Part shown: in pieces, positions 18,895 through 60,317 of the stretch
How positions within the stretch are numbered: the stretch's first letter is position 1
Layout of the letters: each line of letters begins with the position of its first letter
Origin: Bugula neritina
Taxonomy: Eukaryota; Animalia; Bryozoa
Length of the DNA: 64,000 bases
NCBI GenBank assembly: GCA_964035545.1
Contig: OZ037766.1
Span: forward strand, 13,134,722 to 13,198,721
Direction of reading: 5' to 3'
Notes under the pieces: generated by a model
Told to the model about the DNA's origin: nothing
Seen by the model: the letters and a program-made list of their open reading frames with translations, nothing else
Database searches by the model: none
Made by a program: the position numbers and the translations under genes

Positions 18895-19030
18895 TCGAAC
18901 TACAGTGTATAGGTGTCACAATAGAGTGTATAAGTGTGACAATAGAGTATACAAGTGTCACACTACAGTGTATAGGTGTCACACTACAGTGTGTAGGTGT
19001 CACACTAGGGTATATAAGTGTCACACTAAA
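18895..19030. repeat. degenerate 21-bp minisatellite (GTGTCACACTACAGT core)
   Basis: About 6 diverged units related to the 23441-23810 array; a remnant also at about 32735-32785. Confidence 0.75.
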
Positions 19031-21872: not shown

Positions 21873-22781
21873 ATTGAAAACTACAGCTCTGCTAATTTTG
21901 AAGTTTTACAGCGTGTTCAGAAAGATACAGAGAAGTGTTACCAGCCGTTCAATCAGACTAACACCACTATGAACTCAGTTTCTTTTGTTTTTAATATTCC
22001 ACATCTGCTTTTACTGTGTCAAATGACAAAATGAAAAGCTACCAAGTACTTCTGGATTCTAGTGAACATAACGCTTTCCGATATTGTAAACAGCATCATT
22101 AGTCCTTTGTATCTCAGCTGCGAACTTCGTGTAGCCATTTTTAAACTTTCCTCTATTGCCACACATTTGCTATTTTTCACAGCTCAAGTCTTGGCAGGGT
22201 TTGTTGTGACTTACAGATACTCTGTGCTAATAATAGCAAGCGTAGAAAGATACGTTGCAGTTTGCAGACCACACACCTACAAAACAAACTACATTGTCAG
22301 AAATATAAAGATATGTTTTGGAGTTGCAATAGCTTCAACATTGTTATATCCATGTTTCTTTTGTGTGATGTACTTGCCGAAGCTTTGCTGGTCACAGCTG
22401 AAGGTTATGTATGCTTTCGGCAAACCTATGATACTAGCATCTGCGTTATTATAGCAATACTAGTTAGTGAAAGTCTTGATGAAGCTGAGAAGTATGACAA
22501 AGAAGCCGGTTGAATGACTACGTAATAAAACATTATTGGTTGCAAGTAAATATATTATAAGAGCGTATGTTATACACCAACTATCAAACTTTCTGCCGAC
22601 AGTTTTATTGGTGCTTCAGTTTTCAAACTTTTCAAAGATCGTTGCTACACTTTGCGTAAACTTGTATGGTATAGCAAATGTAATTCTATTTGCCTATTTT
22701 CATCCAAAATATGTCAGCAAAATAAAGAGTATTTTAGGAATTGATAAATGCTCTAACCAGGTTCAACCCGATACCAGTTGA
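21873..22781 (+). pseudogene. GPCR pseudogene, copy 3
   Basis: Start ATG>ATT at 21873, premature TGA near 22032, frameshifting deletion after ILASALL and further stops; retains ERYVAVCRP and CSNQVQPDTS. Confidence 0.9.
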
Positions 22782-23440
22782 ATGGTTAAGATATTGCCAC
22801 CTGATTGGCTCTCTCACTTTATTTGTTGTGATTATGGTCTTGTCACTTTGGAGTTGTCACTCCAAAATTGTCTGCTCTGGAATGATAATATCATAATTAT
22901 AGTTTTTATAACAGCCAATTTACTTGTGTTATCATTGAGTGTTTCCAACTTTTGTAATAATGTTTGTCTAAAAATAAATACCTATGAATGAATCTGTAAT
23001 TATAGATGCACACATATAAATATATTGGCTAGGTATATTCTTAGGCAGTCATTATTCTTCGCACATCAATAATCACATTTAGTGCTCACAAAAGTACATA
23101 CAGACATGAATTAATAAGCACAAAATTGAAAAAGTTTCTCTTTGAAAAGTTGACTATTTTTCTTGCTTGGTTGCTTTTAGTTAGTTTTTTGAGGATTGTA
23201 CTAATATTTGGCAGTTATAGGAGGTTGAATTTCAGTAGGTTACCCTCCTCTCAAAATAGATACAAATACACATGAACTGCCCTTTACAAGTTTAGTAACT
23301 AAATACATCTTACATATAATATATAATATTATCATTGACATTATTTCATGTCAAATGAGACAAATAAAGCTACTATACTCTATAATCTGTATAGCTGCTT
23401 GAATAGGTACAACGCCTAGATTCTAGATTATGGTACATAT

Positions 23441-23810
23441 AGGTGTCACACTACAGTCTGTTGGTATCACACTACAGTCTGTTGGTATCACACTACAGTC
23501 TGTTGGTATCACACTACAGTCTGTTGGTATTACACTACAGTCTGTTGGTATCACACTACAGTCTGTTGGTATCACACTACAGTCTGTTGGTATCACACTA
23601 CAGTCTGTTGGTATCACACTACAGTAAATTGGCGTCACACTACAGTATATTGGTGTCACACTATACAGTATATTGGTACTACATTACATTACATTGATGT
23701 TGAACTACAATACCTATATTAAGGTGTCACACAACAGTCCATTGATGGCATACTACAGTATGTAGGTGTCACACTACAGTAGATTGGCGTCACACTACAG
23801 TATATATACT
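23441..23810. repeat. 21-bp minisatellite (GGTATCACACTACAGTCTGTT)n
   Basis: About 8 near-identical units 23442-23625 followed by diverged units to about 23810. Confidence 0.95.
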
Positions 23811-25227
23811 ATATAGACACAACGTTGCAATACTTTTGTGTCATAGGGGTTGAGTCTCTCAAGTATAATTCACATGTAGCAAAATAAACTAATCTTCTAC
23901 ATGAGCGCCATTGTAGTGTATTTCATCATCATACAGGTTACAAACAGTGCATTCTTCATTGTTCTAGATGCTCCCCTGAAGCTGACAATGAAGTTGTCTG
24001 CTCACTGGAAAGGAAAAAGTATTTATGAAAATTCAGAGTTTTAAAATTGAACATGGTTATACAGAATTGATTTCACCTGCTTAACTTGGTTCAAAATCTT
24101 ATCATGCTTGTTTAGGAAAATTATTTAATACAAACAGACACATATTGATGAAGTAGATGTGCAGCCATAGCCATGTTGCAGCAAGAAGATAGTGAATAAA
24201 ACAACTAAGCACCCATGTCATTTTGATGCTAAACCTGTTTATGATGTTTATGCTCCAAGTCTTCAACCCTGAATGCATAAACACTATTAGGTACTACTTC
24301 TACTACTACTGCTAGTTATAATTGCGACTACAGCTGCTACCACTACTGTGTTTTGTGTTTCAAGCTAGTTTGTATTCATGATGTAAAACACTTTTTTACG
24401 AGTAAGTTATTCCTGTGAAATACATTATCTATGAACTTTATACAACTAGACTCTATTCCTACAGTTGTGGAATTATTTCTCTTTTCTTGCAAACTTTTTG
24501 CAAAAAAAACTCCAAGCAGTACCACAACTCACAAAGTTTAAATGAGCTAAAGCTGGGGCCACATGACACGGATTTTCTGCACTGGCTTACATGCTATATA
24601 ATTAAGTATTTAGTTCAATGTGTGATATAGCAGTGTAGGTTTGTTACATACTACTAAGTTTAGTGCAAAGAAAGTTAATTAGTGACACCTATCAGCAAGA
24701 GTTGTCTCTAAATTACCCTAGCTTCATCGATTTTTGAGAATGTAAAATAGTTTAACGACTGCAAACTACATCTTCATCTATTGCTTTTCACAACAAGTAC
24801 ATGTAACAAATTACCACATTGCTTCATTGTAACTACAACAAAGATTGAAGATGGCATTTTAATTTGTTTCAACACTGGATAAACTGGAAATTAGGTTTAT
24901 AAACTTTAGCCCATCATAAAAGATGTCATCGAATTTTACTGTGTAAAATCTATACTTATAAATATTATATTATTCAGTCGCTATATTAAACAAGGCATGG
25001 TTGTTTTCCAATCTAAAAATACTTCTATGATCGACAGTTTACAATCTACATGTTTTCTTCACTCAAGGAAATTGATACTAAGACGTGTATCTCTTGCGTC
25101 TTATAGCTAAAATAGACAACATCTCTGAGATCAAATATAGCTACGGGTAAGTGTACCCCATACACCGAGCTGAAGGAGCTGACACATTATATATTGCTGA
25201 CACATCTTAGTTTGATAGAAAAGTACT

Positions 25228-26190
25228 ATGGGAAACTACAGCTCAACTAACTTTGAAGTTTTACCGTGTTTCCTGAATGATACAGAAATTTGTTACCAGC
25301 CATTCAACTATGCTAACAATGCTATGAACTTGGGATCGTTTGTTTTGAACATCTTGCATCTACTTATACTGTTCCAGATAGCAGAATTAAAGAATACAAA
25401 GTATTTCTGGAGTATATTGAACATAACCCTCGTCGATATTGCCTTCAGCATCATTATTTTCTTCTATTTCAGCTGCGAAGTCCGTGTTGCCATTTTTAAA
25501 CTTTCGGCTATTTCCATGTACTCACTTTTACTCACTATTCAAGTTTTGACTGCATTTGCTGTGATTTCAAGGTATTCTGTGCTAATAATGGCAAGCATAG
25601 AAAGATACGTTGCTGTTTGCAGACCACACGAGTACAAAACAAACTACATTGTCAGAAAGATAAAGATATGTTTTGGATTTACAATTGCTTTGACATTGAT
25701 ATATTCATCTCTTATTTGTACAACGTACTTGCCCTTGCCGAAACTTTGCTGGTCTCAGCTTAAAGTTATGTTTGTTTCTGGTAGACCTTTAATACAGGCA
25801 TATGTTTTGTTAACAATACCAATTATCAGCGCATCACTAATGATCACAATTCTTCTGGTGAAAGTCTGGATGAAGTTGAGAATTATGATCAAGAATCCGG
25901 TTGGTGGACAACGTAATAAAACATTATTGGCTGCAAGTAAATATATTATATCGATATATGTTATGCATCAACTACTGAACATTTTATTATTATTTTATTC
26001 AACGATTCAGTTATCAAACTTTTCGACTTCCATATTCATCATAGAGATTGTTTCTACATTCCTTGTGAACTTGTATGGTGTAGCAAATGTAATTCTATTC
26101 GCTTACTTTCACCCAAAGTATGTCAGCAAAATAAAGAGTATTCTAGGAATCAACAGATGCTCTAATCAGGTTCAACCTGATGCTAGTTGA
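25228..26190 (+). CDS. divergent rhodopsin-like GPCR, copy 4
   Basis: 320 aa paralog, motifs intact. Confidence 0.9.
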   Translation: MGNYSSTNFEVLPCFLNDTEICYQPFNYANNAMNLGSFVLNILHLLILFQIAELKNTKYFWSILNITLVDIAFSIIIFFYFSCEVRVAIFKLSAISMYSLLLTIQVLTAFAVISRYSVLIMASIERYVAVCRPHEYKTNYIVRKIKICFGFTIALTLIYSSLICTTYLPLPKLCWSQLKVMFVSGRPLIQAYVLLTIPIISASLMITILLVKVWMKLRIMIKNPVGGQRNKTLLAASKYIISIYVMHQLLNILLLFYSTIQLSNFSTSIFIIEIVSTFLVNLYGVANVILFAYFHPKYVSKIKSILGINRCSNQVQPDAS

Positions 26191-27931
26191 ACAGTGAAAA
26201 GATTATCAACTGCTGATAGACTTTCTTGTTTTATTTGTCTCTAGAACAATGTTGTCCTTATGGAGCTGTCATTACGGTATTGTTTACTCTATAGAATTAT
26301 GATTGTATTATATCTTTGATATCTTTTATCTTGGATAGCATATCACCGTGTTAATTTTGAGTGTTTTCATTATTTATGTTCAATATTGTCAATAAAAATA
26401 AATAATTTTGACTAAACATTAAATATATCAGTTACTATAATTAGTCCAGTGTAGTGGATGTATAGCATTATAGTTTTCATACTTATTAATGCAATTACAT
26501 ATTTAGCAAATCAATGCTGATTGCTAGGTGGCAATTTATGCTGTTTGCCTTTTTATATTGTTTTATATTTTACTGGCTCTAGCCTTAAAGCTCTCCTTAT
26601 TGGATATTCACCAATTAGATTTCAATATTTTCTTTATTAAATATAATAACGCAGCGTGAAATCTTATGTCACATAATAATCTACCTTCAACAGCATAATA
26701 TAAGAATAATCATCTGTTCAATAGAAAGATGTAACATAATTTAAGCACTAACAAAAGCTTTATTAACATGACATATGACTATATAAAAATAATGTTCAAT
26801 AGTACAAAACAAGTAAACATCCCTTCGTAATTCATTCAACATGTACTACACCCTATTTTCCTATCTTATATATATAAATATCCATTATAATCTCTTTTGA
26901 ATCTGTAACTGGCCAGCTCAATTGTTAGGCATGGACTGGTAGCTTTATAAAGGGTAGCTATTAGTACTTAATATCTATTTGAACTAACCCCTTTCCCATT
27001 CACCAAGGCAGAGACAGCCCAGGCATGCCAAACCTATAATTCATGACAGCTACAGGTGATTAAGCTCTGAATGATATTTGAATAGAAATTAATTACACTC
27101 CCACCTAATTTTCTTTTGGGGCAAAAACTAAAATTACTTGCTTTTTACCATTTATATTTCTGTTTTTTTTAATTTTTCTCTAATAAAATTCTTTCTAACT
27201 ATGCTCCACCAGAAAGAGAACCAATCTTTGAATAGGTCTTTCAAGGATAGTTGGTGGCCGCATAACCTCACCCTTACTGTCAAATTCACAATTAAGTACT
27301 CTAACGTTAGCTTGTCAAACCTGCCCATCTTCGCTTAGCATTACCTGCTCTACAATTGTGGTGTTCCAGAGGCTTTTTTCGGTTGATTATTTTCTACTAT
27401 AGTGCAAAGAAAGTTAATTAGTAATACCTATAAGCATGAGCTGTCACTAAACTACCCTAGCTTCATTGATTTTTAAAAACGTAAAATAGTTCAATAGTTG
27501 CAAACTACTTTATTATATTATGTTGCTTTTTCACAATAATTATATGCTTAACAAATTACTATATTGTTTCATTGTAACTGAAAATTGATTGCAGGTGGCA
27601 TTTTAAAATGTTTTAATTTTTAACTAGACAAGCACTGAAAATTAGGTTTATAGACTTTAGTTCACCATAAAAGACACCTAATTGCATTGCGTAAAATGTA
27701 TACTTATAAACAATATGTAGTGGTTTTCAAGTCTAAATGCACATCTATGGTTGACTGTCAACATTTTATTCATGCTTAAGAAAGCTGATACTGAAACGTG
27801 TACCTTATACTAAAGGTAGCTGACATTTCTTGGATCAAAGATAGCTAATAGTAAGTGTACTTCTTACACCGAGCTGAAGGAGCTGACACATTATATATTG
27901 CTGACACATCTTAGTTTGATAGAAAAGAATT

Positions 27932-28894
27932 ATGGGAAACTACAGCTCTACTAACTTTGAAGTTTTACCGTGTTTCCTGAATGATACAGAAATTTGTTAC
28001 CAGCCATTCAACTATGCTAACAATGCTATGAACTTGGTATCGTTTGTTTTGAACATCTTGCATCTACTTATACTGTTCCAGATAGCAGAATTGAAGAATA
28101 CAAAATATTTTTGGAGTATATTGAACATAACCCTGGCCGATATCGCGTTCAGCATCATTATTTTCTTCTATTTCAGCTGCGAAGTCCGTGTTGCTATTTT
28201 CAAACTTCCCGCTATTTCCATGTACTCACTTTTACTCACTATTCAAGTTTTGACTGCATTTGCTGTGATTTCAAGGTATTCTGTGCTAATAATGGCAAGC
28301 ATAGAAAGATACGTTGCTGTTTGCAGACCTCATGAGTACAAAACAAACTGCATTGTCAGAAAGATAAAGATATGTTTTGGATTGACAATTGCTTTAACAT
28401 TTTTATATTCAATTCTTATTTGCGCCACGCATTTACCCTTGCCAGAACTTTGCCGGTCTCAGCTTAAAGTTACATTTGCTCCTGGTAGGCCTTTGATACT
28501 GACATATGGTTTGCTAACAATACCAATTGTCAGCGCATCGCTGGTGATCACGATTCTTCTGGTGAAAGTTTGGATGAAGTTGAGAATTATGATCAAGAAT
28601 CCGGTTGGTGGACGAAGCAATAAAACATTATTGGCTGAAAGTAAATATATTATATCCATATATGTTATACATCAACTATTGAATGCTTCATTATTAATTT
28701 ACACAACGATTCACTTATCAAGCTTTACAGCTTCCATATTCATAATAGAGATTGTTTCTACATTCTGCGTGAACTTGTATGGTATAGCGCATGTAATTCT
28801 ATTCGCTTACTTTCATTCAAAGTATGTCAGCAAAATAAAGGGTATTTTAAGAATAAATAGATGCTCTAATCAGGTTCAACCTAATACTAGGTGA
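27932..28894 (+). CDS. divergent rhodopsin-like GPCR, copy 5
   Basis: 320 aa paralog; open frame but several otherwise invariant residues are changed. Confidence 0.85.
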   Translation: MGNYSSTNFEVLPCFLNDTEICYQPFNYANNAMNLVSFVLNILHLLILFQIAELKNTKYFWSILNITLADIAFSIIIFFYFSCEVRVAIFKLPAISMYSLLLTIQVLTAFAVISRYSVLIMASIERYVAVCRPHEYKTNCIVRKIKICFGLTIALTFLYSILICATHLPLPELCRSQLKVTFAPGRPLILTYGLLTIPIVSASLVITILLVKVWMKLRIMIKNPVGGRSNKTLLAESKYIISIYVIHQLLNASLLIYTTIHLSSFTASIFIIEIVSTFCVNLYGIAHVILFAYFHSKYVSKIKGILRINRCSNQVQPNTR

Positions 28895-30058
28895 ACAGTG
28901 AAAAGACTATCAACTGATTGACTTTCTTGTTTATTTGTCACAGGAGCAATGTTGTCCTTATGGAGTTGTCATTCCGGTATTATTTGCTCTAGAATTTTTA
29001 TTATAATATATATCTGTTATTGCAGACAGCTGATATCGTGATGTTGTTTTTTAATGTTTTCATTTTTTATGTTCAATATTGTCAATAAAAACAAATAGTT
29101 TTGACTAAACATTAAATATATCAGTTACTATAATTAATCTAGTGTAGTAGATGTAGCATTATAGTTTCCCTACTTGTTAATGCAATTACATAATTATTTT
29201 TTAGCAAATCAATGCTGATTGCTAGGTGGCAATTTTTGCTATTTGCCTTTTTATATCGTTTTATACTTTACTGGCTCTAGCCTTAAAGCTCTCCTTGTAG
29301 AACGTGTAAAAAGGTTATTTGATATTCACCAATTAGATTTCAATATTTTCTTTATAAAATAGAATATAACACAGCGTGGAATATAGAATCAAATATTAAT
29401 CTACCTTCAACAGCATAATACTAGAATAATCATTTTTTGAACAGAAAGCTATGACATCTAAGCATACCAAAAGCTTTAATAACATGACATATGACTATAT
29501 AAAAATAATGTTCAATAGTACAAACAAGTAAACATCTCTTTGTAATTCATTCAGCATGGCCTACTACACCCTATTTTCCTATCTTATATATAAATATCCA
29601 TTATAATCGCTTTTGAATCTGTAACTAGTCAGCTAAATTGTTAGGCATGGACTGGTAGCTTTAGAAAGGATAGCTATTAGTACCTAATATCTATTTGAAC
29701 TAACCCCTCTCCCATTTAACAAGGCAGAGGCAGCCCAGGCATGCCAAACCTATCATTCATGACAGCTACAGGTGATTAAGCTCTGAATGATAATTGAATA
29801 GAAATTAATTACACTCCCACCTAATTTTCTTTTGGGGCAAAAACTGAAATTACTTGCTGTTTGCCATTTATATTTCTGTTTTTTTATTTTTCTCCAATAA
29901 AATTCTTTCTAACTATGCTCAACCAGAAGGAGAACCAATCTTTGAATAGGTCTTTCAAGGATAGTTGGTGGCCGCATAACCTCACCCTTACTGTCAAATT
30001 CACAATTAAGTACTCTAACGTTAGCTTGTCGAACCTGCTCATCTTCGCTTAGCATTTC

Positions 30059-30352
30059 CCCCTTATTCACACTTACCATAATGTACGTCGTAACATAAAA
30101 TATTAGCCATTTTTAATGTATCTGGGCTGAAGTTTTCAAAGTCCGCTATCAGGTGCGATCTATGAAACTTCATTGGACAATTACATCCAACGAATTAAAG
30201 CAAAAGTTTTTCTGTCCAATAGAAGTCCGCCGCAACTTATTTGAATCAAGCAGTGTTTGATCCTACCGTACCGCAACAGGAAGCTCAGACATTTGTAAAA
30301 ATGGCTGATATTTGCTGTTACGGCGTACAATACGGTAAGTGTGAATAAGGGG
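30059..30352. mobile_element. MITE (non-autonomous DNA transposon) with about 70-bp TIRs
   Basis: CCCCTTATTCACACTTACC...GGTAAGTGTGAATAAGGGG followed by TA; absent from the paralogous site at about 27340 (TTAGCATTACCTGCTC). Confidence 0.9.
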
Positions 30353-30944
30353 TACCTGCTCTACAATTGTGGTGTTTCAGAGGCTTTTCGGTTGATTATT
30401 TTCTACTATAGTGCAAAGAAAGTTAATTAGTGATACCTTTAAGCATGAGCTGTCACTAAACTACCCTAGCTTCATTGATTTTTAAAAATGTAAAATAGTT
30501 CAACAGTTGCAAACTACTTTATTATATTATGTTGCTTTTTCACAATAATTATATGCTTAACAAATTACTATAATTATTGTTTCATTGTAACTGAGAATTG
30601 ATTGCAGGTGGCATTTTAAAAGGTTTTAATTTTTAACTAGACATGCACTGAAAATTAGGTTTATAGACTTTAGTTCACCATAAAAGACACCTAATTGCAT
30701 TGCATAAAATATATACTTATAAACAATATGTAGTAGTTTTCAAATCTAAATGCACATCTATGGTTGACAGTCAACATTTTATTCATGCTCAAGAAAATTG
30801 ATACTGAAACGTGTACCTTATACTAAAGGTAGCTGACATTTCTTGGATCAAAGATAACTAATAGTAAGTGTACCTCTTACATCCAACTGAAGGAGGTGAC
30901 ACATTATATATTGCTGACACATCTTAGTTTGATAGAAAAGAATT

Positions 30945-31901
30945 ATGGGAAACTACAGCTCAACTAACTTTGAAGTTTTGCCATGTTTTCAGAATGATAC
31001 AGAAATGTGTTACCAGCCATTCAACTATACTAACAATGCTATGCACTTGGGATCTTTTGTTTTGAACATCCTGCATCTACTTATACTGTTCCAGATAGCA
31101 GAATTAAAGAATACAAAATATTTCTGGAGTTTACAAAGCTTAACTCTTATTGATATCACGTACAGCGTCATTACTTTTTTATATTTCAGCTGCGAAATCC
31201 GTGTTGCCATTTTTGAATTTCCCTCTATTTCCACGTACTCGCTTTTTCTTACTATTCAAGTTTTGATGACATTTGCTGTGATTTCAAAGTATTATGTGCT
31301 AATATTGGCAAGCATAGAAAGATATGTTGCTGTTTGCAGACCACACGATTACAAAACAAACTATTTTGTCAGAAAGATAAAGATATGCTTTGGATTTGCA
31401 ATTGCTTTGACATTTTTATATTCAATTCTTATTTGTGCCACGCATTTGCCAGAACTTTGCTGGTCTCAACTTAAAGTTACATTGATTTCTGGAAAACCTT
31501 TAATATTAACATATGTTTTGCTAACAATACCAATTGTCAGCGCATCACTAGTGATCACGATTCTTCTGTTGAAAGTCTGGATGAAGTTGAGAATTATGAC
31601 AAAGAGGCCGATTGGCGGACAACGTAATAAAACATTGTTGGCTGCAAGTAAATATATTATATGGACATATATTTTGCATCAATTATTGAATGTGTTATTG
31701 GTAACTATTGCAACGTTTCAGTTATCAAGCTTTACAACTTCCAAATTCATTATAGAAATTGTTGCTGTATTTTGCGTAAACTTGTATGGTGTAGCAAATG
31801 TAATTCTATTTGCTTACTTTCATCCAAAGTATGTCAGCAAAATAAAGAGTATTTTAAGAGCCGACAGATGCTCTAATCAGGTTCAACCTGATACCAGTTG
31901 A
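30945..31901 (+). CDS. divergent rhodopsin-like GPCR, copy 6
   Basis: 318 aa paralog, motifs intact. Confidence 0.9.
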   Translation: MGNYSSTNFEVLPCFQNDTEMCYQPFNYTNNAMHLGSFVLNILHLLILFQIAELKNTKYFWSLQSLTLIDITYSVITFLYFSCEIRVAIFEFPSISTYSLFLTIQVLMTFAVISKYYVLILASIERYVAVCRPHDYKTNYFVRKIKICFGFAIALTFLYSILICATHLPELCWSQLKVTLISGKPLILTYVLLTIPIVSASLVITILLLKVWMKLRIMTKRPIGGQRNKTLLAASKYIIWTYILHQLLNVLLVTIATFQLSSFTTSKFIIEIVAVFCVNLYGVANVILFAYFHPKYVSKIKSILRADRCSNQVQPDTS

Positions 31902-48819: not shown

Positions 48820-50420
48820 ACTTATGATGCGCCTGATTTGCTATCTAAAACACACATGACTTACTCAGACAAGTAAATTGCAAGACTTTACTGCCTCTAA
48901 CTTTAGCCATAACCAAACTGGCTAAACTTTAGCTCATAATATTTTAGCACATACCTATTAAAAATACTTTAAATGCAATAACTTAGCGAACAAATTGGAG
49001 GCAACCAATCAACAGAACATCTTGAAAACCTGTTGCTGTGTTTAAATTATTTATTGAGTCACTAAAATTTTCTATTACATATTCTAGTGGAACATTTAAA
49101 GTTCAAACTTACTAAAACAACTTACAATACTGTTCTAAATGGTGGGAACTAATTATGATTATAGTAATTAGTTTTAGACATATATTTGATAATGTGTTAA
49201 TTCTAATATTGTAAGCACTAAGCAGCTTCTTATACTATAATTAGAAGCAATATTATCTGATATTCATAGGTACACCTGTACTTGTATAGAATAATCTAGT
49301 TAATGGTAGAGAGATAACTCCTTAAGGTGAATAATAAAAACATATTCTCTAGCTATATGCAGCCATTGTGCCAGGTTAAAAAAGTTTACAGGGCTCCATA
49401 TATATGTATAAGTTATGTACATGAAGCCCGTAAAACTTCTGAATCTTGCACAATGGCTGCAGCCATTATAAACTAAGTATAGTAATTATAATATAGAAGC
49501 AGTATAATGCGCAGAAGATTAGAGTCAATGTCTTAATATATACCGTCCTCGTCTAGATTTAAAACATGAATTTACTATTTTCCACCATTTCCAGGGCAGT
49601 CCTTCCATTCTGTAAATATTGTTCACGTCAATTCTTGATTTGTGAGTGATGTCAATTGAAAAAGCTGTTGAGGTAACTTTGTAAACATTCTTTTTTTGAA
49701 AAACATTTCCTTTAAAACTCAAACCAATATTGCTGTCATTTATTATTCCATCATATTCATGATCATTATAATCACCATAATATAAGCCTTTTCTAAGTCT
49801 TTCTTGCAGCTTTCCCACTTTGTCATATTCCCTATTGAATAGATATATAAATATTTTTTCAGCTCCATGTTAGCCTAATTATAGCCATTATTAATTTTTT
49901 TTTAAATATTCTATCATTTTATGAACTAGGTTATTAAATTAAAAATATTACTTTGATGCTATTTCTGATATTTCAAAATTTCATCATATAACACACAATT
50001 TCATTTCATGTACCTCGCATGGGTCTTGACTAAATAGTTTGAATTAAAGTTACCTATTCAAAAACTACAAACATTTTACAAATTTTGAATGGAAAGTTTG
50101 CCATTTTATGTAATTAACTTTAAATTGCTATAAAATATGACTTTAGCTGGCTGCAATAATAATAATAAATATTCAGAATAAAATTATATGTTTCTAATAA
50201 TACAACAATAGGTTGATAAAAATAATATGATCTGTAATATCATAAACTCACTGTGTAGTTGACGATAGAGTACAATTCTTTGATTTACCATCATTCGAGA
50301 GAAACAGACAGGATGCGTACCTTCTAAAACACATGGTGTGCCTCATGTTGCTGCAGGACATACTGACGGTAATGCAGATCGCAAAATGTCCTCTGCTAGT
50401 TTCAAAGAAAGCAACAGATT
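48820..50420 (-). other. possible exons of an unidentified or decayed gene next to the Polinton insertion
   Basis: Several segments bounded by ag/gt signals (about 50395-50322, 49830-49545, 49030-48985 with CSVDWLPPICS, 48922-48866); I could not assemble a convincing frame. Confidence 0.25.
49358..49461. mobile_element. 104-bp fold-back MITE-like element
   Basis: TGCAGCCATTGTGC...GCACAATGGCTGCA with imperfect symmetry continuing almost to the centre. Confidence 0.7.
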
Positions 50421-50674
50421 AAATAAGCTTTTAACAAAAGCTGTACATGCAGATTTTATCATTTTGTGCTGCTACTGGATTAAAGCTATATTAGTATATT
50501 TACAACAGCTTGCTAAAAATAAGGATTATAGCAGAGCAAAAAATTATACTAACAAAGTATTTCCAATCTTAATAGCACCAGTATATAAAAAAGTTTTTAG
50601 AATAATATATTACTGTTATTATTATAAAACTATACGTTCTTACAATCCTACAGTGTACATCCTGTAACATCAGG

Positions 50675-50778
50675 AGTAGTAGAGGGTGGATGGTCCTGGC
50701 TCACTCTTCTTCCACCGTCGAGTCTTCGACTCGACAGTGTCAGAAGAGCGATCCAGGACGCATCCACCCTCTACTACT
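50675..50778. repeat. terminal 104-nt imperfect palindrome (hairpin)
   Basis: 50-nt arm, TTC loop, 51-nt arm; 5 mismatches and 1 bulge; starts AGTAGT and ends ACTACT. Confidence 0.95.
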
Positions 50779-50784
50779 CTATTA

Positions 50785-50855
50785 GTAATATTATAAAAAA
50801 GTAGTATAATATTATAAAAAGTAGTGTAATATTATAAAAAGTAGTGTAATATTAT
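50785..50855. repeat. subterminal 20-bp tandem repeat (GTAATATTATAAAAAGTAGT)
   Basis: About 3.5 units, each with an internal TAATATTA palindrome. Confidence 0.9.
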
Positions 50856-51007
50856 TTAGAAAAATATTTTTTTATTTTTAAAAAAAATTTTTCTAGGGTG
50901 GATGGTCCTAGCTCACTTCTTTTTTCAAAGAGTGTTATAAGAGTAATTTACTCTATTAGTAATATTATAAGAATTATTGTGAAAATATTTATTCTTATTT
51001 TAGTAGA

Positions 51008-51529
51008 TTATTCGTTAATACTATTATAATAAAGTTTTAAATATACGTAATTAAAAGGTAGTGCATCAGTAGCGAATTCACTCGGTGTATTAACAAGAAT
51101 TACGTCATTAGGTTTATAACTCGGATAATTACTCGAAAGAGCTATTGTAAACGAAAAATTATTATTAGCGTTAACGGTTTTATTAATATTTATTTTACTA
51201 TACGGAACATTATGTTCGGCACCGCTAATAGTATAAAATAAATTTTCTTTAGATTCATCAAATGGGTTTACGCTATTACGAATATGTAAACCTAATTTTT
51301 TATCGGTCCAATATAATTCTTTCGTTTTATTATTAGGTGAACTTTCGTTATAAAATTGTATTAACGCGTGCGTTATTTCTATAGATTTATTGACTAAATA
51401 ATCATTAATTAAATCTACCGTAAAGCTATTAATATCTTCGTAATAATAAAATTCGTGTTTAGGTATAATACTCGTAATATACGCTTTATTAGTCGTTATA
51501 TCGACTTTACTAAATTTATAAATATTCAT
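51008..51529 (-). CDS. Polinton beta-rich protein, paralog 2 (candidate fiber/receptor-binding)
   Basis: 173 aa; shares TKELYWTDK, YPS.KP.DVIL and ALPF.YV..KLYYN with 51526-52044; function inferred only. Confidence 0.75.
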   Translation of the reverse strand: MNIYKFSKVDITTNKAYITSIIPKHEFYYYEDINSFTVDLINDYLVNKSIEITHALIQFYNESSPNNKTKELYWTDKKLGLHIRNSVNPFDESKENLFYTISGAEHNVPYSKININKTVNANNNFSFTIALSSNYPSYKPNDVILVNTPSEFATDALPFNYVYLKLYYNSINE

Positions 51530-52044
51530 TTATAATTATAATAAAGTTTTACTAATACGTAATGAAAAGGTAATGCCGCGGCGGTTATTTCGCTAGCTGG
51601 AGTATCGGTTAAAATTACGTCGCTAGGTTTATGACTAGGATAAGTTTTTGATAACACCATTGTTAATTTAAAATTTTTATTAGCTTCAATAATTTTATTA
51701 GCGTTTATTTCGCTAAACGGAAGATTATGTTCGCCACCGCTTATATCATAAAAAGTATTTTCATTGGCTCCACTGAATATTTCAGCGCTATTTCTAACGT
51801 GTAAGCCTATTCGTTTATCAGTCCAATAAAGTTCTTTAGTATTATGAGCTTGTTCACCGTAAAATTGTACTAATATATTCGTTATTTCAATCGGTTCATC
51901 GATTAAAAAATCTTTAACTAACGTAGCAATAAATCCTTCGGGATGATACGTAAATTCTGATGGAATTATGATCTTTGTAATATATGGTTTTTCATTTATT
52001 ATAGTGGCTTTAGCCGAATTTCCAAAAATATATACCGAACTCAT
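51526..52044 (-). CDS. Polinton beta-rich protein, paralog 1 (candidate fiber/receptor-binding)
   Basis: 172 aa; ATGA overlap with paralog 2; N-terminus MSSVYIFG. Confidence 0.75.
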   Translation of the reverse strand: MSSVYIFGNSAKATIINEKPYITKIIIPSEFTYHPEGFIATLVKDFLIDEPIEITNILVQFYGEQAHNTKELYWTDKRIGLHVRNSAEIFSGANENTFYDISGGEHNLPFSEINANKIIEANKNFKLTMVLSKTYPSHKPSDVILTDTPASEITAAALPFHYVLVKLYYNYK

Positions 52045-52446
52045 TTATATTAGTAAATTATTTATAATTAATTGAGGCGTTTCGCGTTTAGACATTTCTT
52101 TAAGCCAATATAAACACAAGTGTCCGCATATAACTGTACCGAATTCTTGTACTCGTTCCGTATTATAAAATACTGGCCCTTTTAAATATTTCATTATTTC
52201 TAAAGGAGGATGTAATCCAAAACTATCGAAATAATATTTTTTATTTCCATTTTTGTACCACGCTACCCAATGAGTGCCGTTACCCATTAAATCGTCTAAA
52301 TTTAATATGCCACACTCTTTTTTACGCGATACATTGGGTAAATTATTCCTCGAGAATACTCCTCTAAAACGCGGTATTTTTAATTTTTTAATAGCGAACT
52401 CTAATTCAATATTCGAAAGAGCTTTATTTTCTAACTTTATACTCAT
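52045..52446 (-). CDS. adenain-like cysteine maturation protease
   Basis: ILNLDD...GTHWVA, YFDSFG, Q....ICGHLCLY give a complete His-Asp-Gln-Cys set. Confidence 0.93.
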   Translation of the reverse strand: MSIKLENKALSNIELEFAIKKLKIPRFRGVFSRNNLPNVSRKKECGILNLDDLMGNGTHWVAWYKNGNKKYYFDSFGLHPPLEIMKYLKGPVFYNTERVQEFGTVICGHLCLYWLKEMSKRETPQLIINNLLI

Positions 52447-55400
52447 TTATATATAGCCGTATGGAACCGTAGTTATTCCGTCTTCGAGTATTACCCTTTT
52501 ATCATCCTCGGCCGACAGAGCTACTTTATTTATAGTCTCAGCGTACATCGTATGCTTATGACTTCTTAGTACATTCATTGCCCTATGCTGATCTTTTCTA
52601 GTAATAAGACAATTATAATAATCGTTAAACGTTATACGATTATTACGAGTACTCTTATTAATACCCTTACATTTTTTTTCTTCTATACTATCCATTTTGT
52701 AAGAGTACAATTTAGCCCTTAATCCGACAAATTCAGTAATTTGTTTTCCGCCGGCTTCGTCTTTAAACTTACCTATTACTTTTTTATTTTTACCGGTTGG
52801 TATACCCGATTTATGATTTTCAGGATAATTACTCGTGTCGAATTTATTTTTGACGTCCGGAGTAATATCCTTATAAAAGTCTTCAGTTTTTACGTGATAC
52901 ATTAAGCTGTCCGTATCCGTAAATAGCAACTGAGCCTTATTACCATATTTTGGTTTAATATATTCGTAATGAAACTCGTACATAAGGATTTTGCTAATAT
53001 CTAATATAGCCGCTCCCAAATATACGGGTTTATCAAATTTTAATTTAGTCACGTTCGTATGAACGGCTACTAAATTTTCGGAAAATATAGTGAAGCTTTT
53101 AAAGTTTGGTTGATTAGTAAACTTTTTAGCTTCATTTTCGCTAGTAACCAACTTAACGTTGACTCTATTGCGAATATCTTCCATAGTTTTACCGAACACG
53201 GAATTATTCATTAGCTTAAAGAAATCTTTTTCAAAATCGCTTTTAGCTAATGTTCTTAGTTCGGTATTTAATTTAATATATTTTTTTAATTTATTAGATT
53301 CGTCGAAGGTTATACCTCTATGAATCTTCGTTATTTTTAATCCGCGTATAACGCATTCTTTCAGCATTTCGTAATGTAATATATAATTTTTTTTATTATT
53401 TAAATTTGGCACTAATTTTTCCACTTTATTAATTATTAGCCTTTCAGGGCAGAGTGGATAATCCTTATGAGAGTCGTGTAATTCTTTAGGATATTCCAAA
53501 TCCACTTCCAAAAAGCTAGGCGGAAAGTCTAAAGTTTTTTCCAAACTTTTACACCGCTTTTCGGTCATCCACTTAAAATTACCCGTAGGTAATTTTTGAG
53601 TCATAGACCAACCGTATAAGTTATTAGCGTCTAAATACATGATATAACTACTAGGTTCTTTAGGATTATAATTTTCCATATACTTATTATTAGCTTTAGC
53701 GTATCTATGACTAATCATACTTACACCGCCCCTAATAGCCTTTTCAAAGAAAAGTAGTTGGTCAATATCCGTAATAGGGTCTAGCTCTAATTCAGTAGTT
53801 TTAAGCATGGCATCCCACGACAAGCCTGGAGCCGTATAGTACCAAGCGGGATCTAGCTTATAGTGTTCGAGGCAAACGTTTCTAAAGTTTTCAAAAACGT
53901 CCGCCAGCTGCAACACGTCGCTTTTTAAATATAGATTATGGTATTCTCTAAACGTTTCCATTTTAAATTCCCTCCAAACGTTTTGAGCGTGTTCATAATC
54001 TTCTTCGCTTATATTACTCTCGGTTAAACTCGAGTAAAATTTTTCTTTAGGCGGTAAACATTTTTCATCCAATACGTTTATATTGTTGAAATAATCGTAC
54101 GGAAATACTCCTTTTCTTAATACTAAGTCTAATCGTTTTTCCGTATAATGTTCGCCCAAGTGTTTAAAGTCGTCGCGCTTTAAATTCGCTACTAAGCTCG
54201 CCAAGCTAGAACTCATAAACTTATACGAGTCTAAAAAGCGAATTTCGCGCGTGACTTTAATATTTTTATCGTCTTTAGTAAATTCGTCTACTAATAACTT
54301 TTTACTAAACGATATATATTTTTCCTCGGTGTTGGGTATACAAGAAATTTCACCGCCCAAGTTTTTAATAAACAAGTGGGCGTCGTAACCCGACAAATTG
54401 TGTATAAACACCGGATAAAATTTCGGAAGCTTATAATTTAAATTACAATTTTTATGAGCGGCTCCTCTATAGTTTCCGGTTAAGTGACAATGATCTCTCA
54501 CTTTATCACCACTTAATTTTTCTTCGCATATATAACAAATTTCGGCTAATTCGAAAGACTTTTGTTCGCTAGCCGTAATTGTCATGCGTTTAGGAAACTT
54601 GTGCTCGTTATACAAGTTTTTAATGTCGAATTCTAACAGCCTTATAAACTGTTCGCCGACATTTTCATCCTTGGTTTCTTTAGTGTAACTTCTATAATTA
54701 CACTCGCCGGTAATGCTTACGATATAATATCCAAAGCCCGACGGTTCGTGCTGTTGATATTGATTAGTATAGCTTTCTTGAGAATTAGGCTGACAACCTT
54801 GTATAGGCTTTGTAAAACATTCAAAGTCCGCGTATACCACAAACGGCACTCGCATGCTACGACAATGATGACTAGATTGAAATTTTATTTTATCTTCTAA
54901 TTTTGGAAATGTCGTAGTCACGCTATCGTTTTTTAAGCACCAATCTTGATGCTTTTTTAAAGATTCGTTAGATCGAAACGAATTCATACAATTTACGCAA
55001 ATATGTTTAGCGCTAACGCGTTTATTTATTTGCGAACCGAGTAATTTATTTAAATTTTTAATATACGTATAATGATTTTTTTCGCCATCGGTTATATAAA
55101 GTAAATTTATAATTTTATTCTGACCGCTAGTTTTTCTCCATAAATTTATCGTTTTACTGTCCCACATAAATACATTAATTCCTATTGAGGGATTAACTTT
55201 TTCGAAAGCGTTGATGGATTCTTTAGTAGCCGGAAATTCTACTCCTTCCCACGATAATTTATTAACGTGCTCTTTATAATTACTAATTCTTTCAACATTT
55301 TTATTAACCGGATAAACTCCCATTAAAATGGCCCACATAAAGCATTTATCGTCTTTATTTTTTGGATTTATTACGGCTTTTTTTAATTTAATTTCTTTCG

Positions 55401-56103
55401 GAAGATCAATCCACGATGATCCGTTAAGAGGTTGATATTTATTAATATTAATTTCCATTTTTTTAATGGAATTAAACGTCCAACTACTTCCTTTAGCGTT
55501 TAATGAAGCAAAATTTTCTTTTATACGTTCAATTATTTCATCGTATATTTCATTAACATTCGTAGAAGATAATATAATTTCAACGTTTGATGTAAATGGC
55601 ATAGTTTCTATAATAATTTCTCCGGTACTTATATTATGCTTTTTTACTTCGCAATATAAAAATATTTTAGCTTTTATAGTAGGTTTTAATAACTCTAGTA
55701 CGTTTTGTTTTACTAATTTACAAAACGAATCTATATCGTATCCGGGTAAACCTTTAATTTCATAAGTTTGAAACCAACCATTAGCGGCTTGTTCTTTAAG
55801 TTTAGGCTGATTATATAAAGCCATAATTTTATCCTTAATTGGATTTATAATTTTTGCAATTGGCGCTACAATACCCTTAACCCATTTTTTTATATTACGC
55901 GTAGTTTGCGTAAATATTTCACGCATAATTTTTTTCGCGGGTATAGGTATTAACGGGGCTTGTCCTATATTCGGAACGGGTTCGTCCATAGGTGATAATA
56001 GCCGTATAAGTTCGGCTTTTTTTAATCGAGAATATCGTTTCAATCCTCTTTCTTTAGCTAAAGCTTTTAAAGCTTTCACGGTAATTTTTGTATTGAACTC
56101 CAT
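52447..56103 (-). CDS. protein-primed-type family B DNA polymerase with EndoVII/HNH insertion
   Basis: 1218 aa; ExoI YADFEC, ExoII HNLSGYD, ExoIII YLKSDV, Pol motifs YLDANNLYG, KLMNNSVFGK, FTDTDS; CYIC...RDHCHLTGNYRGAAHKNCN insertion. Confidence 0.96.
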   Translation of the reverse strand: MEFNTKITVKALKALAKERGLKRYSRLKKAELIRLLSPMDEPVPNIGQAPLIPIPAKKIMREIFTQTTRNIKKWVKGIVAPIAKIINPIKDKIMALYNQPKLKEQAANGWFQTYEIKGLPGYDIDSFCKLVKQNVLELLKPTIKAKIFLYCEVKKHNISTGEIIIETMPFTSNVEIILSSTNVNEIYDEIIERIKENFASLNAKGSSWTFNSIKKMEININKYQPLNGSSWIDLPKEIKLKKAVINPKNKDDKCFMWAILMGVYPVNKNVERISNYKEHVNKLSWEGVEFPATKESINAFEKVNPSIGINVFMWDSKTINLWRKTSGQNKIINLLYITDGEKNHYTYIKNLNKLLGSQINKRVSAKHICVNCMNSFRSNESLKKHQDWCLKNDSVTTTFPKLEDKIKFQSSHHCRSMRVPFVVYADFECFTKPIQGCQPNSQESYTNQYQQHEPSGFGYYIVSITGECNYRSYTKETKDENVGEQFIRLLEFDIKNLYNEHKFPKRMTITASEQKSFELAEICYICEEKLSGDKVRDHCHLTGNYRGAAHKNCNLNYKLPKFYPVFIHNLSGYDAHLFIKNLGGEISCIPNTEEKYISFSKKLLVDEFTKDDKNIKVTREIRFLDSYKFMSSSLASLVANLKRDDFKHLGEHYTEKRLDLVLRKGVFPYDYFNNINVLDEKCLPPKEKFYSSLTESNISEEDYEHAQNVWREFKMETFREYHNLYLKSDVLQLADVFENFRNVCLEHYKLDPAWYYTAPGLSWDAMLKTTELELDPITDIDQLLFFEKAIRGGVSMISHRYAKANNKYMENYNPKEPSSYIMYLDANNLYGWSMTQKLPTGNFKWMTEKRCKSLEKTLDFPPSFLEVDLEYPKELHDSHKDYPLCPERLIINKVEKLVPNLNNKKNYILHYEMLKECVIRGLKITKIHRGITFDESNKLKKYIKLNTELRTLAKSDFEKDFFKLMNNSVFGKTMEDIRNRVNVKLVTSENEAKKFTNQPNFKSFTIFSENLVAVHTNVTKLKFDKPVYLGAAILDISKILMYEFHYEYIKPKYGNKAQLLFTDTDSLMYHVKTEDFYKDITPDVKNKFDTSNYPENHKSGIPTGKNKKVIGKFKDEAGGKQITEFVGLRAKLYSYKMDSIEEKKCKGINKSTRNNRITFNDYYNCLITRKDQHRAMNVLRSHKHTMYAETINKVALSAEDDKRVILEDGITTVPYGYI

Positions 56104-57365: not shown

Positions 57366-57935
57366 CTATAACAGCATGCCTAAAAGAGGAATGTTTTTAA
57401 ACGGACTATTCGGACCTAAAATTAAACCTTCGCCTTTTATATAGCTAGAACCTTGTTTTAAATATAAACCGTTACCCTTCATTAAATTAGACGACGCGAC
57501 TGGTTTTAAAGTAATAGAACCGTTTAAATTAGGTTCTACGGAACATACGCATCCGCCTTTTTTCAAATAAAGACCTTTACCTTTAATAGCTCTTTCGACT
57601 CCCGCGCTAGCGGCTCCCGAAAGTACGCCGGGTATAATAGTTTTTAATAGCGTAGGTATTACTCTCGTGGCTATACCCAATAGAGCTCCTAAAAATCCTC
57701 CGCTCATTGACGCGTTAGTTTTTACTAACGACGGAGACATTTCGAGCGTTATATTTTTTTTATTCGCGTTTAACGCTTTTAAAATATTATCGTTTTGCGT
57801 TTTCGTAACGAGTAGTTTATCGTTTCCGCTTTCGAGAGGCAATTTAATAACGCAACCCTTACCGCTTCTATAAGCGTTCATTATTTTTTGTTTTTGCGCC
57901 TGCGGCACGTTTCCTATAATTTCGCAATAACCCAT
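57366..57935 (-). CDS. basic virion core protein precursor
   Basis: 189 aa, Lys/Gly-rich; MSGG|F, IKGK|G, MKGN|G, IKGE|G match the adenovirus protease consensus. Confidence 0.75.
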   Translation of the reverse strand: MGYCEIIGNVPQAQKQKIMNAYRSGKGCVIKLPLESGNDKLLVTKTQNDNILKALNANKKNITLEMSPSLVKTNASMSGGFLGALLGIATRVIPTLLKTIIPGVLSGAASAGVERAIKGKGLYLKKGGCVCSVEPNLNGSITLKPVASSNLMKGNGLYLKQGSSYIKGEGLILGPNSPFKNIPLLGMLL

Positions 57936-57947
57936 TTATATAATACA

Positions 57948-58706
57948 TTAAACTTCTCTTAAATGAAATCTTATCGAAAGTTGTTCGCCGCTAAGATCTA
58001 ATAAATTACCTTTTTGATCGGTTACCGTAACGGTTAACGTCTTAATATATTTAACGTGAACGGGTAAGTATATTAGATTATGAGGTTTTTCTATTATTTT
58101 ATATCCCGGACTAACGCTCGGAAAAAATGAATAAATAACGGGTTTATAAGTACCATCGATATAACTTCCGTTAATACAATCAACTTGTACGTGTATAGCG
58201 TTTATATTTAAAATATTTACTATGTTCGTAGCTTCGATATAAGGTTGATTGTATATCGCCGCGTCAAAACCTAAAACGTCTCTTAGAGAATTTTCAACGT
58301 TAAAATCTATTTGGTAATTTGGTTTTAATTTAAGTATAATTCTAAAAGTTACTTTATTAGCTTGCAAAGTAATACCGTTTCTATTACCCCCCTCTTTTAC
58401 TATTTCGTCTTGAATAGCTTCTTCTAGTTGATCTAATTCGTACACTCCGACTGGTAATGAAACTAAATGCCACGTAGTACCACCGTCTTTAGACCATCTA
58501 TAGGAATTTCTATCGGTACTAATGTTTGGAAAAGAATAAAACGTATCCAAACTAATAAGACACATTTCGTATTTTTTATTTTTATTTAATTCTATAGGCG
58601 GATTAAGTTGAGTAATTATTCTCGTTTTAGTATCGGTAACTCCTATAGTCATCGTTTGTTTAGAGGCCGTATTATCAGCAATTTCTCTTAAAATTCTATT
58701 ATCCAT
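57948..58706 (-). CDS. minor capsid protein (penton, single jelly roll)
   Basis: 252 aa directly after the MCP; LNPPIEL, YSFPNI, LP.G.YE, P..LIYLPV, VTDQKG.LLDL.GE...IRFHL typical of Polinton mCP. Confidence 0.88.
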   Translation of the reverse strand: MDNRILREIADNTASKQTMTIGVTDTKTRIITQLNPPIELNKNKKYEMCLISLDTFYSFPNISTDRNSYRWSKDGGTTWHLVSLPVGVYELDQLEEAIQDEIVKEGGNRNGITLQANKVTFRIILKLKPNYQIDFNVENSLRDVLGFDAAIYNQPYIEATNIVNILNINAIHVQVDCINGSYIDGTYKPVIYSFFPSVSPGYKIIEKPHNLIYLPVHVKYIKTLTVTVTDQKGNLLDLSGEQLSIRFHLREV

Positions 58707-59981
58707 TTATATAACTTTTAAATTATTTCCATCGGAACTGAGAGACATAGTTTTATCCGATAAAATTAGCGCGTAAGCTTGAGTATTAGCCGGTACATTT
58801 TGACTAAACTGAACTCTCAATTGAATATCGGCTACGCTACTTTTAAGAGCCTCGCTTTGCTTACTAACGTCTATTACGAACAAAGCGTAAAGATCTTTAT
58901 ATTCCGAAGGTAATACGTTTGAATAAGCGATTAGCTCGTTTATACCGTAATATTCTCCGCAAAACTTAGAAGCGTCTCCGTACACTCTACTAAATTTCAT
59001 TTTAGCAAAATCTATATCGTAATCGACTTCGGGATACCGCTCGCTATTTAACATCGCGTATATACTTTTAACGTTAACGTGATCGAATATGGCCGGATTA
59101 GTCGTTTGACTTTCATTCTTACCCGTTTGAAAACCTATAATAATATATTTAGGTTTTTCGGTATCTCCTCTAGAACCCAAACGCCACGTAAAGTTTGTAG
59201 TTTGCGGCACCGCGATACTATCACACCATCTAGATCTATAAATTAGGGGTAGTTCCGTCTTACTCTCTATAATTTTATAGAGTTTATGCTTCATTTCAAA
59301 ACTAGGCGTTACGTGAGGCATCCACCACGATACTTTATCCAACGTTATTTTTCCCGCGTCTACGCCGTTTGCTCTATAAATAGCGTTATCGTTAGTATCG
59401 CGTACGAGAGTGAGTTGATGTTTTATACCGTACAAAACTTTTTCATAATCGTCGGCGAATCCGAACAAATGTCTAAGATCTACTTTAATACTAAAAGTAC
59501 CTTTAGGATCCGGCTTTTGTATAATATAAATTTGACGCGCGTTAAAACCTAAATTAGCGGCGGCAGCGGCTGCGGTAGTATCTTTTGACCACAACTGATT
59601 AAGACCTCTCGACTTACCGTAATCGTCGGGATAAGTTAGTAAACCCATCATGGTCGAAGCGTGTCCGGGATTATTTATATATTCCAAGTCGTGTCCGTCG
59701 AGTTGATATCTAATACTTTTAAACAAATAAGCCATACCGTTATTCGTTAGCGTTACTAAGTCGGCGTCGGCGTAAGCGGTTCCATCGGCTTTAGTTAAAC
59801 GACCTTCGATAATCAAATAACTTTTACTCGGCTGAACGTACAAATCTTGCTGATTAATAACTATTCTAATTTCGCCGGGATTATTTAAATTCGTTCCCGT
59901 TACGGGTTCGTATTCGTGTACCTGATCGCGTTCTACGCTCGTATCGAGTACAATTTTTTGTGTAATGTTCAGAGAATCCAT
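58707..59981 (-). CDS. major capsid protein (double jelly roll)
   Basis: 424 aa beta-rich; LNNPGEIRIVI.QQD....PS.SYL.IEG, LFGFADDY.K, EKPKYIIIGFQT, LNSERYP, LFVIDVSKQ. Confidence 0.9.
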   Translation of the reverse strand: MDSLNITQKIVLDTSVERDQVHEYEPVTGTNLNNPGEIRIVINQQDLYVQPSKSYLIIEGRLTKADGTAYADADLVTLTNNGMAYLFKSIRYQLDGHDLEYINNPGHASTMMGLLTYPDDYGKSRGLNQLWSKDTTAAAAAANLGFNARQIYIIQKPDPKGTFSIKVDLRHLFGFADDYEKVLYGIKHQLTLVRDTNDNAIYRANGVDAGKITLDKVSWWMPHVTPSFEMKHKLYKIIESKTELPLIYRSRWCDSIAVPQTTNFTWRLGSRGDTEKPKYIIIGFQTGKNESQTTNPAIFDHVNVKSIYAMLNSERYPEVDYDIDFAKMKFSRVYGDASKFCGEYYGINELIAYSNVLPSEYKDLYALFVIDVSKQSEALKSSVADIQLRVQFSQNVPANTQAYALILSDKTMSLSSDGNNLKVI

Positions 59982-60002
59982 TTATTATAGTAAAATAATT
60001 TC

Positions 60003-60314
60003 TTAATAAGCTATAGCTTGTCCGCTTCCTTCTAAAATATTACTTATATTACTATTATTTAATATATTTTTAGTTTGATTAAGCTTTTGTAGTATAGCTT
60101 GACTTTTAGCGTTTAACTTTTTTTGTCTTCTTTTTTTAATCGCGTTAACAATTTTTTCACCGGCCGCGGTACCCGCTTTAGCTATAGCCTTTTTACCTAA
60201 TTCTCTTACGCTGGAATTACTAGCTATTTTAGTTACTACATTTCTAATGGTATCAAATATTCCACCACCGGCGTAGTGTCTTTGTAATCGTTGTCTTTTA
60301 TCGTAAACGTACAT
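60003..60314 (-). CDS. small basic core/membrane-active protein precursor
   Basis: 103 aa; YAGG|G site followed by amphipathic GIFDTIRNVVTKIAS; KKRRQKK; C-terminal LEGS|G. Confidence 0.7.
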   Translation of the reverse strand: MYVYDKRQRLQRHYAGGGIFDTIRNVVTKIASNSSVRELGKKAIAKAGTAAGEKIVNAIKKRRQKKLNAKSQAILQKLNQTKNILNNSNISNILEGSGQAIAY

Positions 60315-60317
60315 TTA

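Follow-up and report, generated by a model that had tools for sequence, protein, structure and literature searches.

An imperfect fold-back hairpin of 104 nt forms the exact left tip of an intact-looking Polinton in the window, by which we mean the whole 64,000-nucleotide stretch of DNA analysed here. The palindrome is the family-wide tip of a multi-copy element, and in public contigs it is kept in one orientation wherever the orientation can be read. We tentatively favour the reading, which we would place just short of probable, that the palindrome serves protein-primed replication as a structured end signal, as opposed to being a closed, flipping telomere.

The hairpin spans positions 50675–50778 and consists, as determined by alignment of the arms, of two arms, 50 nt and 51 nt long, on either side of a TTC loop. 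The tip and its immediate surroundings are organized as follows:

50669–50674, plus strand: candidate 6-bp target site duplication (host hexamer ATCAGG), directly adjoining the tip
50675–50724, plus strand: outer arm of the terminal palindrome, starting with the (AGT)2 Polinton end motif and devoid of the bulged base
50725–50727, plus strand: 3-nt loop of the hairpin (DNA folding, arm alignment)
50728–50778, plus strand: inner arm, with the bulge at 50760 and ending in (ACT)2, the second end motif in head-to-head arrangement
50785–50855, plus strand: 3.5 copies of a 20-nt AT-rich subterminal repeat with AGTAGT inside (94% matches)
50895–50973, plus strand: decayed internal copy of the end unit, in which 22/23 nt of the outer arm and 24/25 nt of the inner flank are kept

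Pairing is perfect over the outer 18 bp and the inner 8 bp, and the alignment contains five mismatches (50700/50752, 50703/50749, 50711/50741, 50712/50740 and 50716/50736) and, in the inner arm, a single bulged base (50760), all of which lie between these two stretches. The counts of arms, loop, mismatches and bulge given in the earlier note thus proved exact, both by arm alignment and by DNA folding, and its description of the AGTAGT end motif as present twice, head to head, holds, the inner arm indeed ending in (ACT)2. The 18-bp perfect stem places the 3' end exactly at the hairpin base, and one extra pair, that of host G50674 with C50779, lies just outside the hairpin. The folding energy of the hairpin (as DNA) is −45.1 kcal/mol, compared with −13.1 ± 2.4 kcal/mol in 200 shuffles (z = −13.6), none of which was equally stable, and the two single strands of the tip are predicted to fold at −43 and −50 kcal/mol. 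Within the 64-kb window, the hairpin is the top-scoring local fold-back, and no site outside the two arms matches the 18-nt tip, even with three mismatches allowed. Most of the inner arm is gone from the decayed internal copy, in which no fold-back is left (z = −1.8); this copy is also present in other samples, including a contig joint 50708–50775. One contig from run X1 (see below) shows a different tandem arrangement of the end unit, with the inner arm repeated. The host DNA contains a weaker second fold-back, also of 104 nt (49358–49461; 74% complementary, −25.5 kcal/mol), possibly a MITE.

Beyond the tip, open intronless genes extend from 51008 to the end of the window, and the element continues past 64000:

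51008–52044, minus strand: two paralogous small ORFs of 173 and 172 aa, 54% identical, no Pfam match
52045–52446, minus strand: adenain-like (C5) maturation protease (Pfam Peptidase_C5 E = 0.006, under the curated cutoff)
52447–56103, minus strand: family B DNA polymerase of 1218 aa, with a terminal-protein-like D1 domain, a vOTU domain, an endonuclease VII-like insertion, and exonuclease and polymerase motifs
57366–61124, minus strand: region with the double jelly-roll capsid protein (Pfam DJR-like_dom E = 9e-58)
61296–62660, minus strand: retrovirus-like integrase with PLA2-like and chromo domains (Pfam rve, Phospholip_A2_4, DUF5679, Chromo)
62673–63431, plus strand: A32/FtsK-type packaging ATPase (Pfam Pox_A32 E = 2e-8)
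63547–63879, plus strand: third paralogue of the small ORFs, 30–32% identical, no Pfam match

The Polinton hallmarks found comprise the family B polymerase, the rve integrase (Pfam rve E = 7e-9, over the curated cutoff), the double jelly-roll capsid protein, the A32 ATPase and, as a weak match, the C5 protease, homologues of which occur in related elements; the remaining labels within 57366–61124 are assigned according to location and to recurrence in related elements. The (AGT)2 end motif stands at the host junction, which is fixed by an empty-site contig and a step in read depth, whereas a right TIR start, sought in 61001–64000, was not found there. From the sequence, we infer that the element is of the beta type, corresponding to the beta class of Starrett et al. 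(PMC8502044), because an OTU domain is predicted in the polymerase and Pfam DNA_pol_B_2 misses it, as expected for this divergent class. The small-ORF paralogues (n = 3) lie near both ends of the visible element, and a fourth ORF, whose start resembles theirs, opens at about 63881; a 31-nt repeat (4.8 copies, 61149–61297) is located between a 268-aa ORF and the integrase. In the host part of the window, five single-exon ORFs of 317–320 aa on the plus strand (17042–31901) suggest a tandem receptor cluster, and the first of them, the only one tested, resembles rhodopsin-family GPCRs of eukaryotes, which makes an animal a likely host.

The stretch was found in nine public runs from three studies, and four of these runs (X6, X7, X1 and X3; two studies) were compared with the window. 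Read depth over the hairpin relative to the host flank was 47x (X6), 57x (X7), 17x (X1) and 30x (X3), with the step at 50675, and 0.5–1.7x that of the element body, depth being a rough sign of many copies and not a copy number. An X6 contig (record 17) follows the window over 50300–50674 with 0 differences and then diverges into 193 letters unlike the element, which we read as an empty site. Several unitigs stop exactly at 50675, others carry different flanks there, and an X1 contig reproduces 50685–50786 with 0 differences. By depth, unitig ends and differing flanks, the hairpin is therefore the tip of many copies, so that a local inversion unique to this copy, which the earlier note had listed as fatal to its proposal, is ruled out.

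The expectation, also from the earlier note, that the hairpin exists as flip and flop isomers with the same mismatches did not hold. A flop end would be recognized by a base inserted after 50692 beside host DNA, by the loss of 50760 beside the inner flank or by a strand-change joint. Neither the deletion nor the insertion is among the indels of the 227 contigs (the indel table is complete), which are short unitigs of integrated copies from which rare variants drop out, and no strand-change joints are listed in the contigs of the four runs. Among the 32 pieces displayed, with 198 others and 14 loose ends falling outside the display, 16 are informative, 10 of them spanning the bulge and reaching the inner flank and 6 spanning the outer arm with at least 6 flank letters, and all 16 keep the window orientation, with the bulge on the inner arm. 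The bulge is on the inner arm also in pieces 84–88% identical to the window (X1 records 2 and 6, X3 record 15 and X6 record 21). Had a flop contig aligned to the outer arm, it would necessarily extend over 50674; the depths, worked through by hand, accordingly set the upper limit on flop at 0% (X6), 5–11% (X7), 11–14% (X1) and 19–30% (X3), where isomers in equal amounts would give 50%, and part of the 50674 coverage behind these limits comes from host flanks with a terminal G. Three of the ten substitutions that a flop requires are listed, without the other seven and without the indel, and thus represent single repairs of mismatches.

The 18 substitutions listed in the hairpin bear on whether its pairing is maintained. 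Six belong to two-sided changes, three restore a pair (50716, 50749 and 50752), one is in the loop, one exchanges a mismatch for another mismatch and seven are pair-breaking at face value. The three two-sided changes (50706/50746, 50714/50738 and 50719/50733) have the depth of one X1 contig, and a simple random simulation puts the chance of three such changes among 10–12 at 0.0005–0.005. Together with its one-contig loose end, X6 record 21 covers the hairpin of another subfamily from end to end, in the window orientation, and carries matching changes at 50695/50757 and 50706/50746, the second of which may be shared with the X1 contig by inheritance. These both-arm changes in diverged copies argue that the palindrome is maintained as a fold-back; moreover, the tip kept its fold-back across diverged subfamilies, whereas the internal duplicate lost it. 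Nevertheless, pairing is not strict, as common one-sided, pair-breaking changes occur at 50734 (~80% of X6 depth) and at 50769 (60–74% in three runs as against 7% in X1); for the latter position, a change in its partner, 50684, is hinted at by unitig breaks and one contig only. End repair alone accounts for the perfect outer 18 bp but not for the deeper two-sided changes, which therefore call for selection or for patchy repair in the folded hairpin, either of which would fit these data.

The polymerase provides the second line of argument. According to Krupovic et al. (bioRxiv 10.1101/2024.03.18.585575), the terminal-protein domain has a Y-family little-finger fold, its linking Ser/Tyr is placed between helix 2 and strand 4, and a vOTU protease comes after it. 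In an AlphaFold model of polymerase residues 90–400 (pLDDT 92.6), the region 107–226 resembles little-finger domains (Pol eta 2r8j, Z 7.5, rmsd 3.1, 100 aligned; Pol IV 4ir1, Z 6.8) and the region 236–353 viral OTU proteases (6dx3, Z 8.1, rmsd 3.7, 104 aligned); these structural Z-scores are moderate, and Foldseek returned the same fold families with E-values >0.001. The matches of the predicted model follow the D1/D2 pattern of Krupovic et al. (bioRxiv 10.1101/2024.03.18.585575), and Ser206 sits in the expected loop, between helix 94–114 and strand 119–133 of the model. Of 81 aligned sequences (the query and 80 of the 150 homologues listed), 79 have Ser, Thr or Tyr at position 206, and the vOTU residues Cys254 and His344 are kept in 79/81 and 80/81, respectively. 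The query has both the exonuclease and the polymerase motifs, and these are conserved across an alignment of 12 sequences, one of which is truncated. Because the polymerase has a predicted terminal-protein domain (Ser206) and an intact vOTU domain, protein priming appears to be kept in this Polinton, and the conservation of the terminal-protein and vOTU residues is an argument for protein-capped ends; being common to relatives, the terminal-protein residues could persist even with hairpin priming in some rounds. The endonuclease VII-like insertion occupies residues about 505–555 (Pfam E = 1e-4) and its motifs are intact in 12/12 polymerases, its activity being a prediction; a sequence search of the insertion against the PDB returned nothing significant. 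Cruciforms and mismatches are substrates of T4 endonuclease VII. Among the 14 element ORFs in the visible part, Pfam gave no match to HUH/Rep or RuvC-type nicking or resolving enzymes.

The presence of the hairpin in relatives was assessed on 26 related loci found by protein (two are the same contig) and screened for tips, in collections that contain few animal genomes. A readable AGT-type tip was found at a single locus, L143, and has no fold-back, so that the hairpin is no general need of this polymerase group; L133, L137 and L155 end inside their TIRs, and the other related loci have no recognizable end. Candidates obtained with the tip sequence itself were rejected: the sole exact match to the 18-nt tip in IMG/VR (L001) falls within coding sequence on an unrelated phage-like contig and is ascribed to chance, and none of the four loci matching a degenerate two-arm pattern (L006 and L007 from JGI metagenomes, L157 and L158 from GTDB genomes) encodes homologues of the element proteins. 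The same pattern had no matches in IMG/VR, and among 136 matches to a lax two-arm pattern in one of the 64 parts of IMG/VR none had arms >70% complementary. In the bacterial contigs, L006:2168-2277 and L158:3001-3102 are near-perfect palindromic inserts of ~100–110 nt that start with AGTAGTAG and end with CTACTACT; no Polinton genes are found nearby, and the inserts are possibly miniature transposons. A polymerase–integrase relative from IMG/VR carries a branched hairpin of ~190 nt (L004:4657-4840; z = −18.4) between the integrase and polymerase genes, not at an end; a palindromic unit, present as two direct copies, makes up this hairpin, and ACTACT and AGTAGT bound it in the order opposite to that of the window tip.

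In the protein-primed scheme that we favour, the terminal-protein serine of the polymerase would use the jumping-back mode put forward for other Mavericks to prime at the outer AGTAGT, the (AGT)2 motif having been linked to such priming (PMC8097293). Once strand displacement has occurred, or a fork has opened the provirus, the tip would fold back on the inner arm, which could then serve as the template restoring a nibbled or integrase-trimmed 3' end, much as Streptomyces Tap acts on a terminal palindrome, and the folded tip would present the end motif at a junction mimicking a free end. New 5' ends would begin only on the bulge-free arm; the palindrome would hence be copied but never moved between strands, and no flop form would arise. 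A precedent for such a combination may be seen in the Streptomyces telomeres, where protein caps and fold-back repair coexist (PMC5449611).

Several other explanations have to be weighed against protein priming at a structured end. Unlikely, in our view, is hairpin priming with one-sided resolution, whereby the displaced 3' tip would prime its own extension and the resulting closed-end or dimer intermediates would be opened on one arm, the bulge picking the arm and the endonuclease VII-like domain, the integrase or terminal-protein priming at a dimer bridge acting as the opener. The 18-bp perfect stem, with the 3' end at the hairpin base, would suit such a process, as would the bulge that stays on the inner arm in subfamilies ~84–88% identical, but one indel retained over 12–16% divergence is a weak sign of selection. 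Similarly, the endonuclease VII-like motif is intact in all 12 polymerases, yet the domain is common to the whole polymerase group, where at least the relative L143 has no terminal hairpin, and no HUH/Rep nicking enzyme is found among the 14 ORFs scanned of the visible element. Such one-sided opening would preserve one orientation, as happens at the left end of protoparvoviruses, for which a bubble mechanism is known from MVM. Self-priming or closed ends with one-sided resolution retain a low probability because certain parvovirus termini exist in one form only (PMC8242256), and by analogy these one-orientation ends remain the only fair counterpart among hairpin telomeres. The same model has been proposed for the Halocafeteria elements, but the palindromes in that preprint are mostly associated with non-pPolB elements (bioRxiv 10.64898/2026.07.28.741278).

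No more than a low probability can be given to a hybrid scheme, in which the 3' tip would self-prime and the hairpin or dimer bridge would be reopened on one bulge-chosen arm by the endonuclease VII-like domain together with terminal-protein priming, while the folded junction would also let the integrated copy be copied out without excision. Such a scheme is not described for any virus. The release of Polinton ends and the start of their replication have never been shown, the standard racket model being a proposal (cited in bioRxiv 10.64898/2026.07.28.741278); if true, the copying-out without excision envisaged in the hybrid scheme would answer how Polintons leave the host genome.

We regard it as rather improbable that the palindrome acts as a duplex, that is, as a dyad protein-binding site for an integrase multimer, the polymerase or the packaging ATPase, with the fold-back as a by-product. 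The retention of 22/23 nt of the outer arm in the decayed internal copy, which is unable to fold back, and the tolerance of common one-sided changes would be consistent with such a site, but the two-sided changes, which alter the sequence yet keep the pairing, are unexpected for a sequence-specific site, and the symmetry extends right to the 3-nt loop. It is improbable, too, that the hairpin is an inherited accident, a functionless product of an ancestral fold-back copying error in which patchy repair in the folded single strand would have generated the two-sided changes. The mismatch positions do differ among copies, the variants at 50716, 50749 and 50752 just restore pairing, the end unit is prone to duplication, and accidental annealing is named as an alternative in bioRxiv 10.64898/2026.07.28.741278; on the other hand, the internal duplicate lost the fold-back that the tip kept across diverged subfamilies, and free arm-copying repair might erase the bulge in some copies, of which none is listed in the 227 contigs. 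Finally, a classical flip/flop hairpin telomere (AAV-, poxvirus- or ASFV-like), with each resolution moving the hairpin to the other strand, is very improbable and largely refuted for integrated copies: although the imperfect terminal palindrome resembles poxvirus telomeres in its mismatches and bulge (PMC8956199), and although contigs drop rare variants and X1 record 2 has 16 letters beyond 50777 outside the display, no flop indel occurs in the 227 contigs, the flop limits run from 0% to 19–30% by run against 50%, and the terminal-protein and vOTU residues are conserved.

Among known systems, the element comes closest to Polintons/Mavericks (Polintoviricetes), the beta adintoviruses (PMC8502044) and the pPolB2 class of Jeong et al. 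2023 (bioRxiv 10.1101/2023.08.22.554363), with which it shares the pPolB with an OTU domain, the rve integrase, double jelly-roll capsid, A32 ATPase, adenain protease, (AGT)2 end motif (PMC8097293) and the nuclease insertion in the polymerase; it differs in that its terminal 104 nt fold back, with a second, inverted end motif. The terms ‘hairpin’ and ‘palindrom’ have 0 occurrences in the main text of these three sources (PMC8097293, PMC8502044 and bioRxiv 10.1101/2023.08.22.554363). The suggestion of the earlier note that terminal hairpins take part in the replication of such elements is already in print for protist virophages and PLVs (bioRxiv 10.64898/2026.07.28.741278), whereas no report of terminal hairpins in animal pPolB Polintons was found in the literature searched, the scope of which lay outside Repbase, subscription journals and supplements. 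In Halocafeteria seosinensis, terminal palindromes are reported in endogenous virophages (subtypes 1, 2, 5 and 6) as well as for PLV subtype 4, and these elements resemble the present one in that the palindrome lies in the TIR beside the TSD, the integrase is of the rve type and replication by hairpin priming has been proposed (bioRxiv 10.64898/2026.07.28.741278). They differ in belonging to a protist, in their mostly non-pPolB replication genes and in the length of the palindromes (52 nt in subtype 5), and section 7 of the preprint makes no mention of isomers (bioRxiv 10.64898/2026.07.28.741278); here, by contrast, a pPolB Polinton of an animal-like genome combines an intact-looking terminal protein with a 104-nt imperfect hairpin in one orientation.

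The Tpg/Tap telomeres of Streptomyces likewise unite terminal palindromes with protein priming, and fold-back restores their shortened 3' end, but the proteins are unrelated, the palindromes are several, short and provided with GNA loops, and replication proceeds from an internal origin with end patching (PMC5449611); the likeness is thus one of analogy, not kinship. Imperfect terminal hairpins with mismatches and a bulge are shared with the telomeres of parvoviruses, poxviruses and ASFV (PMC8956199, PMC8242256, PMC1185569), whereas here no flop is seen, neither a Rep nor a poxvirus-type resolvase is found in the visible part, and a predicted terminal-protein domain is present. What is new here is that one element brings together a long imperfect hairpin whose bulge is fixed, an absence of flop that was put to the test and a terminal protein that looks intact. 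For separating protein priming, self-priming and end repair, the constant bulge and the lack of flop offer a sharp handle. Collectively, one multi-copy, intact-looking family joins a long terminal fold-back with a complete-looking protein-priming apparatus, and thereby breaks the link reported for the Halocafeteria elements between palindromic tips and a lack of pPolB (bioRxiv 10.64898/2026.07.28.741278).
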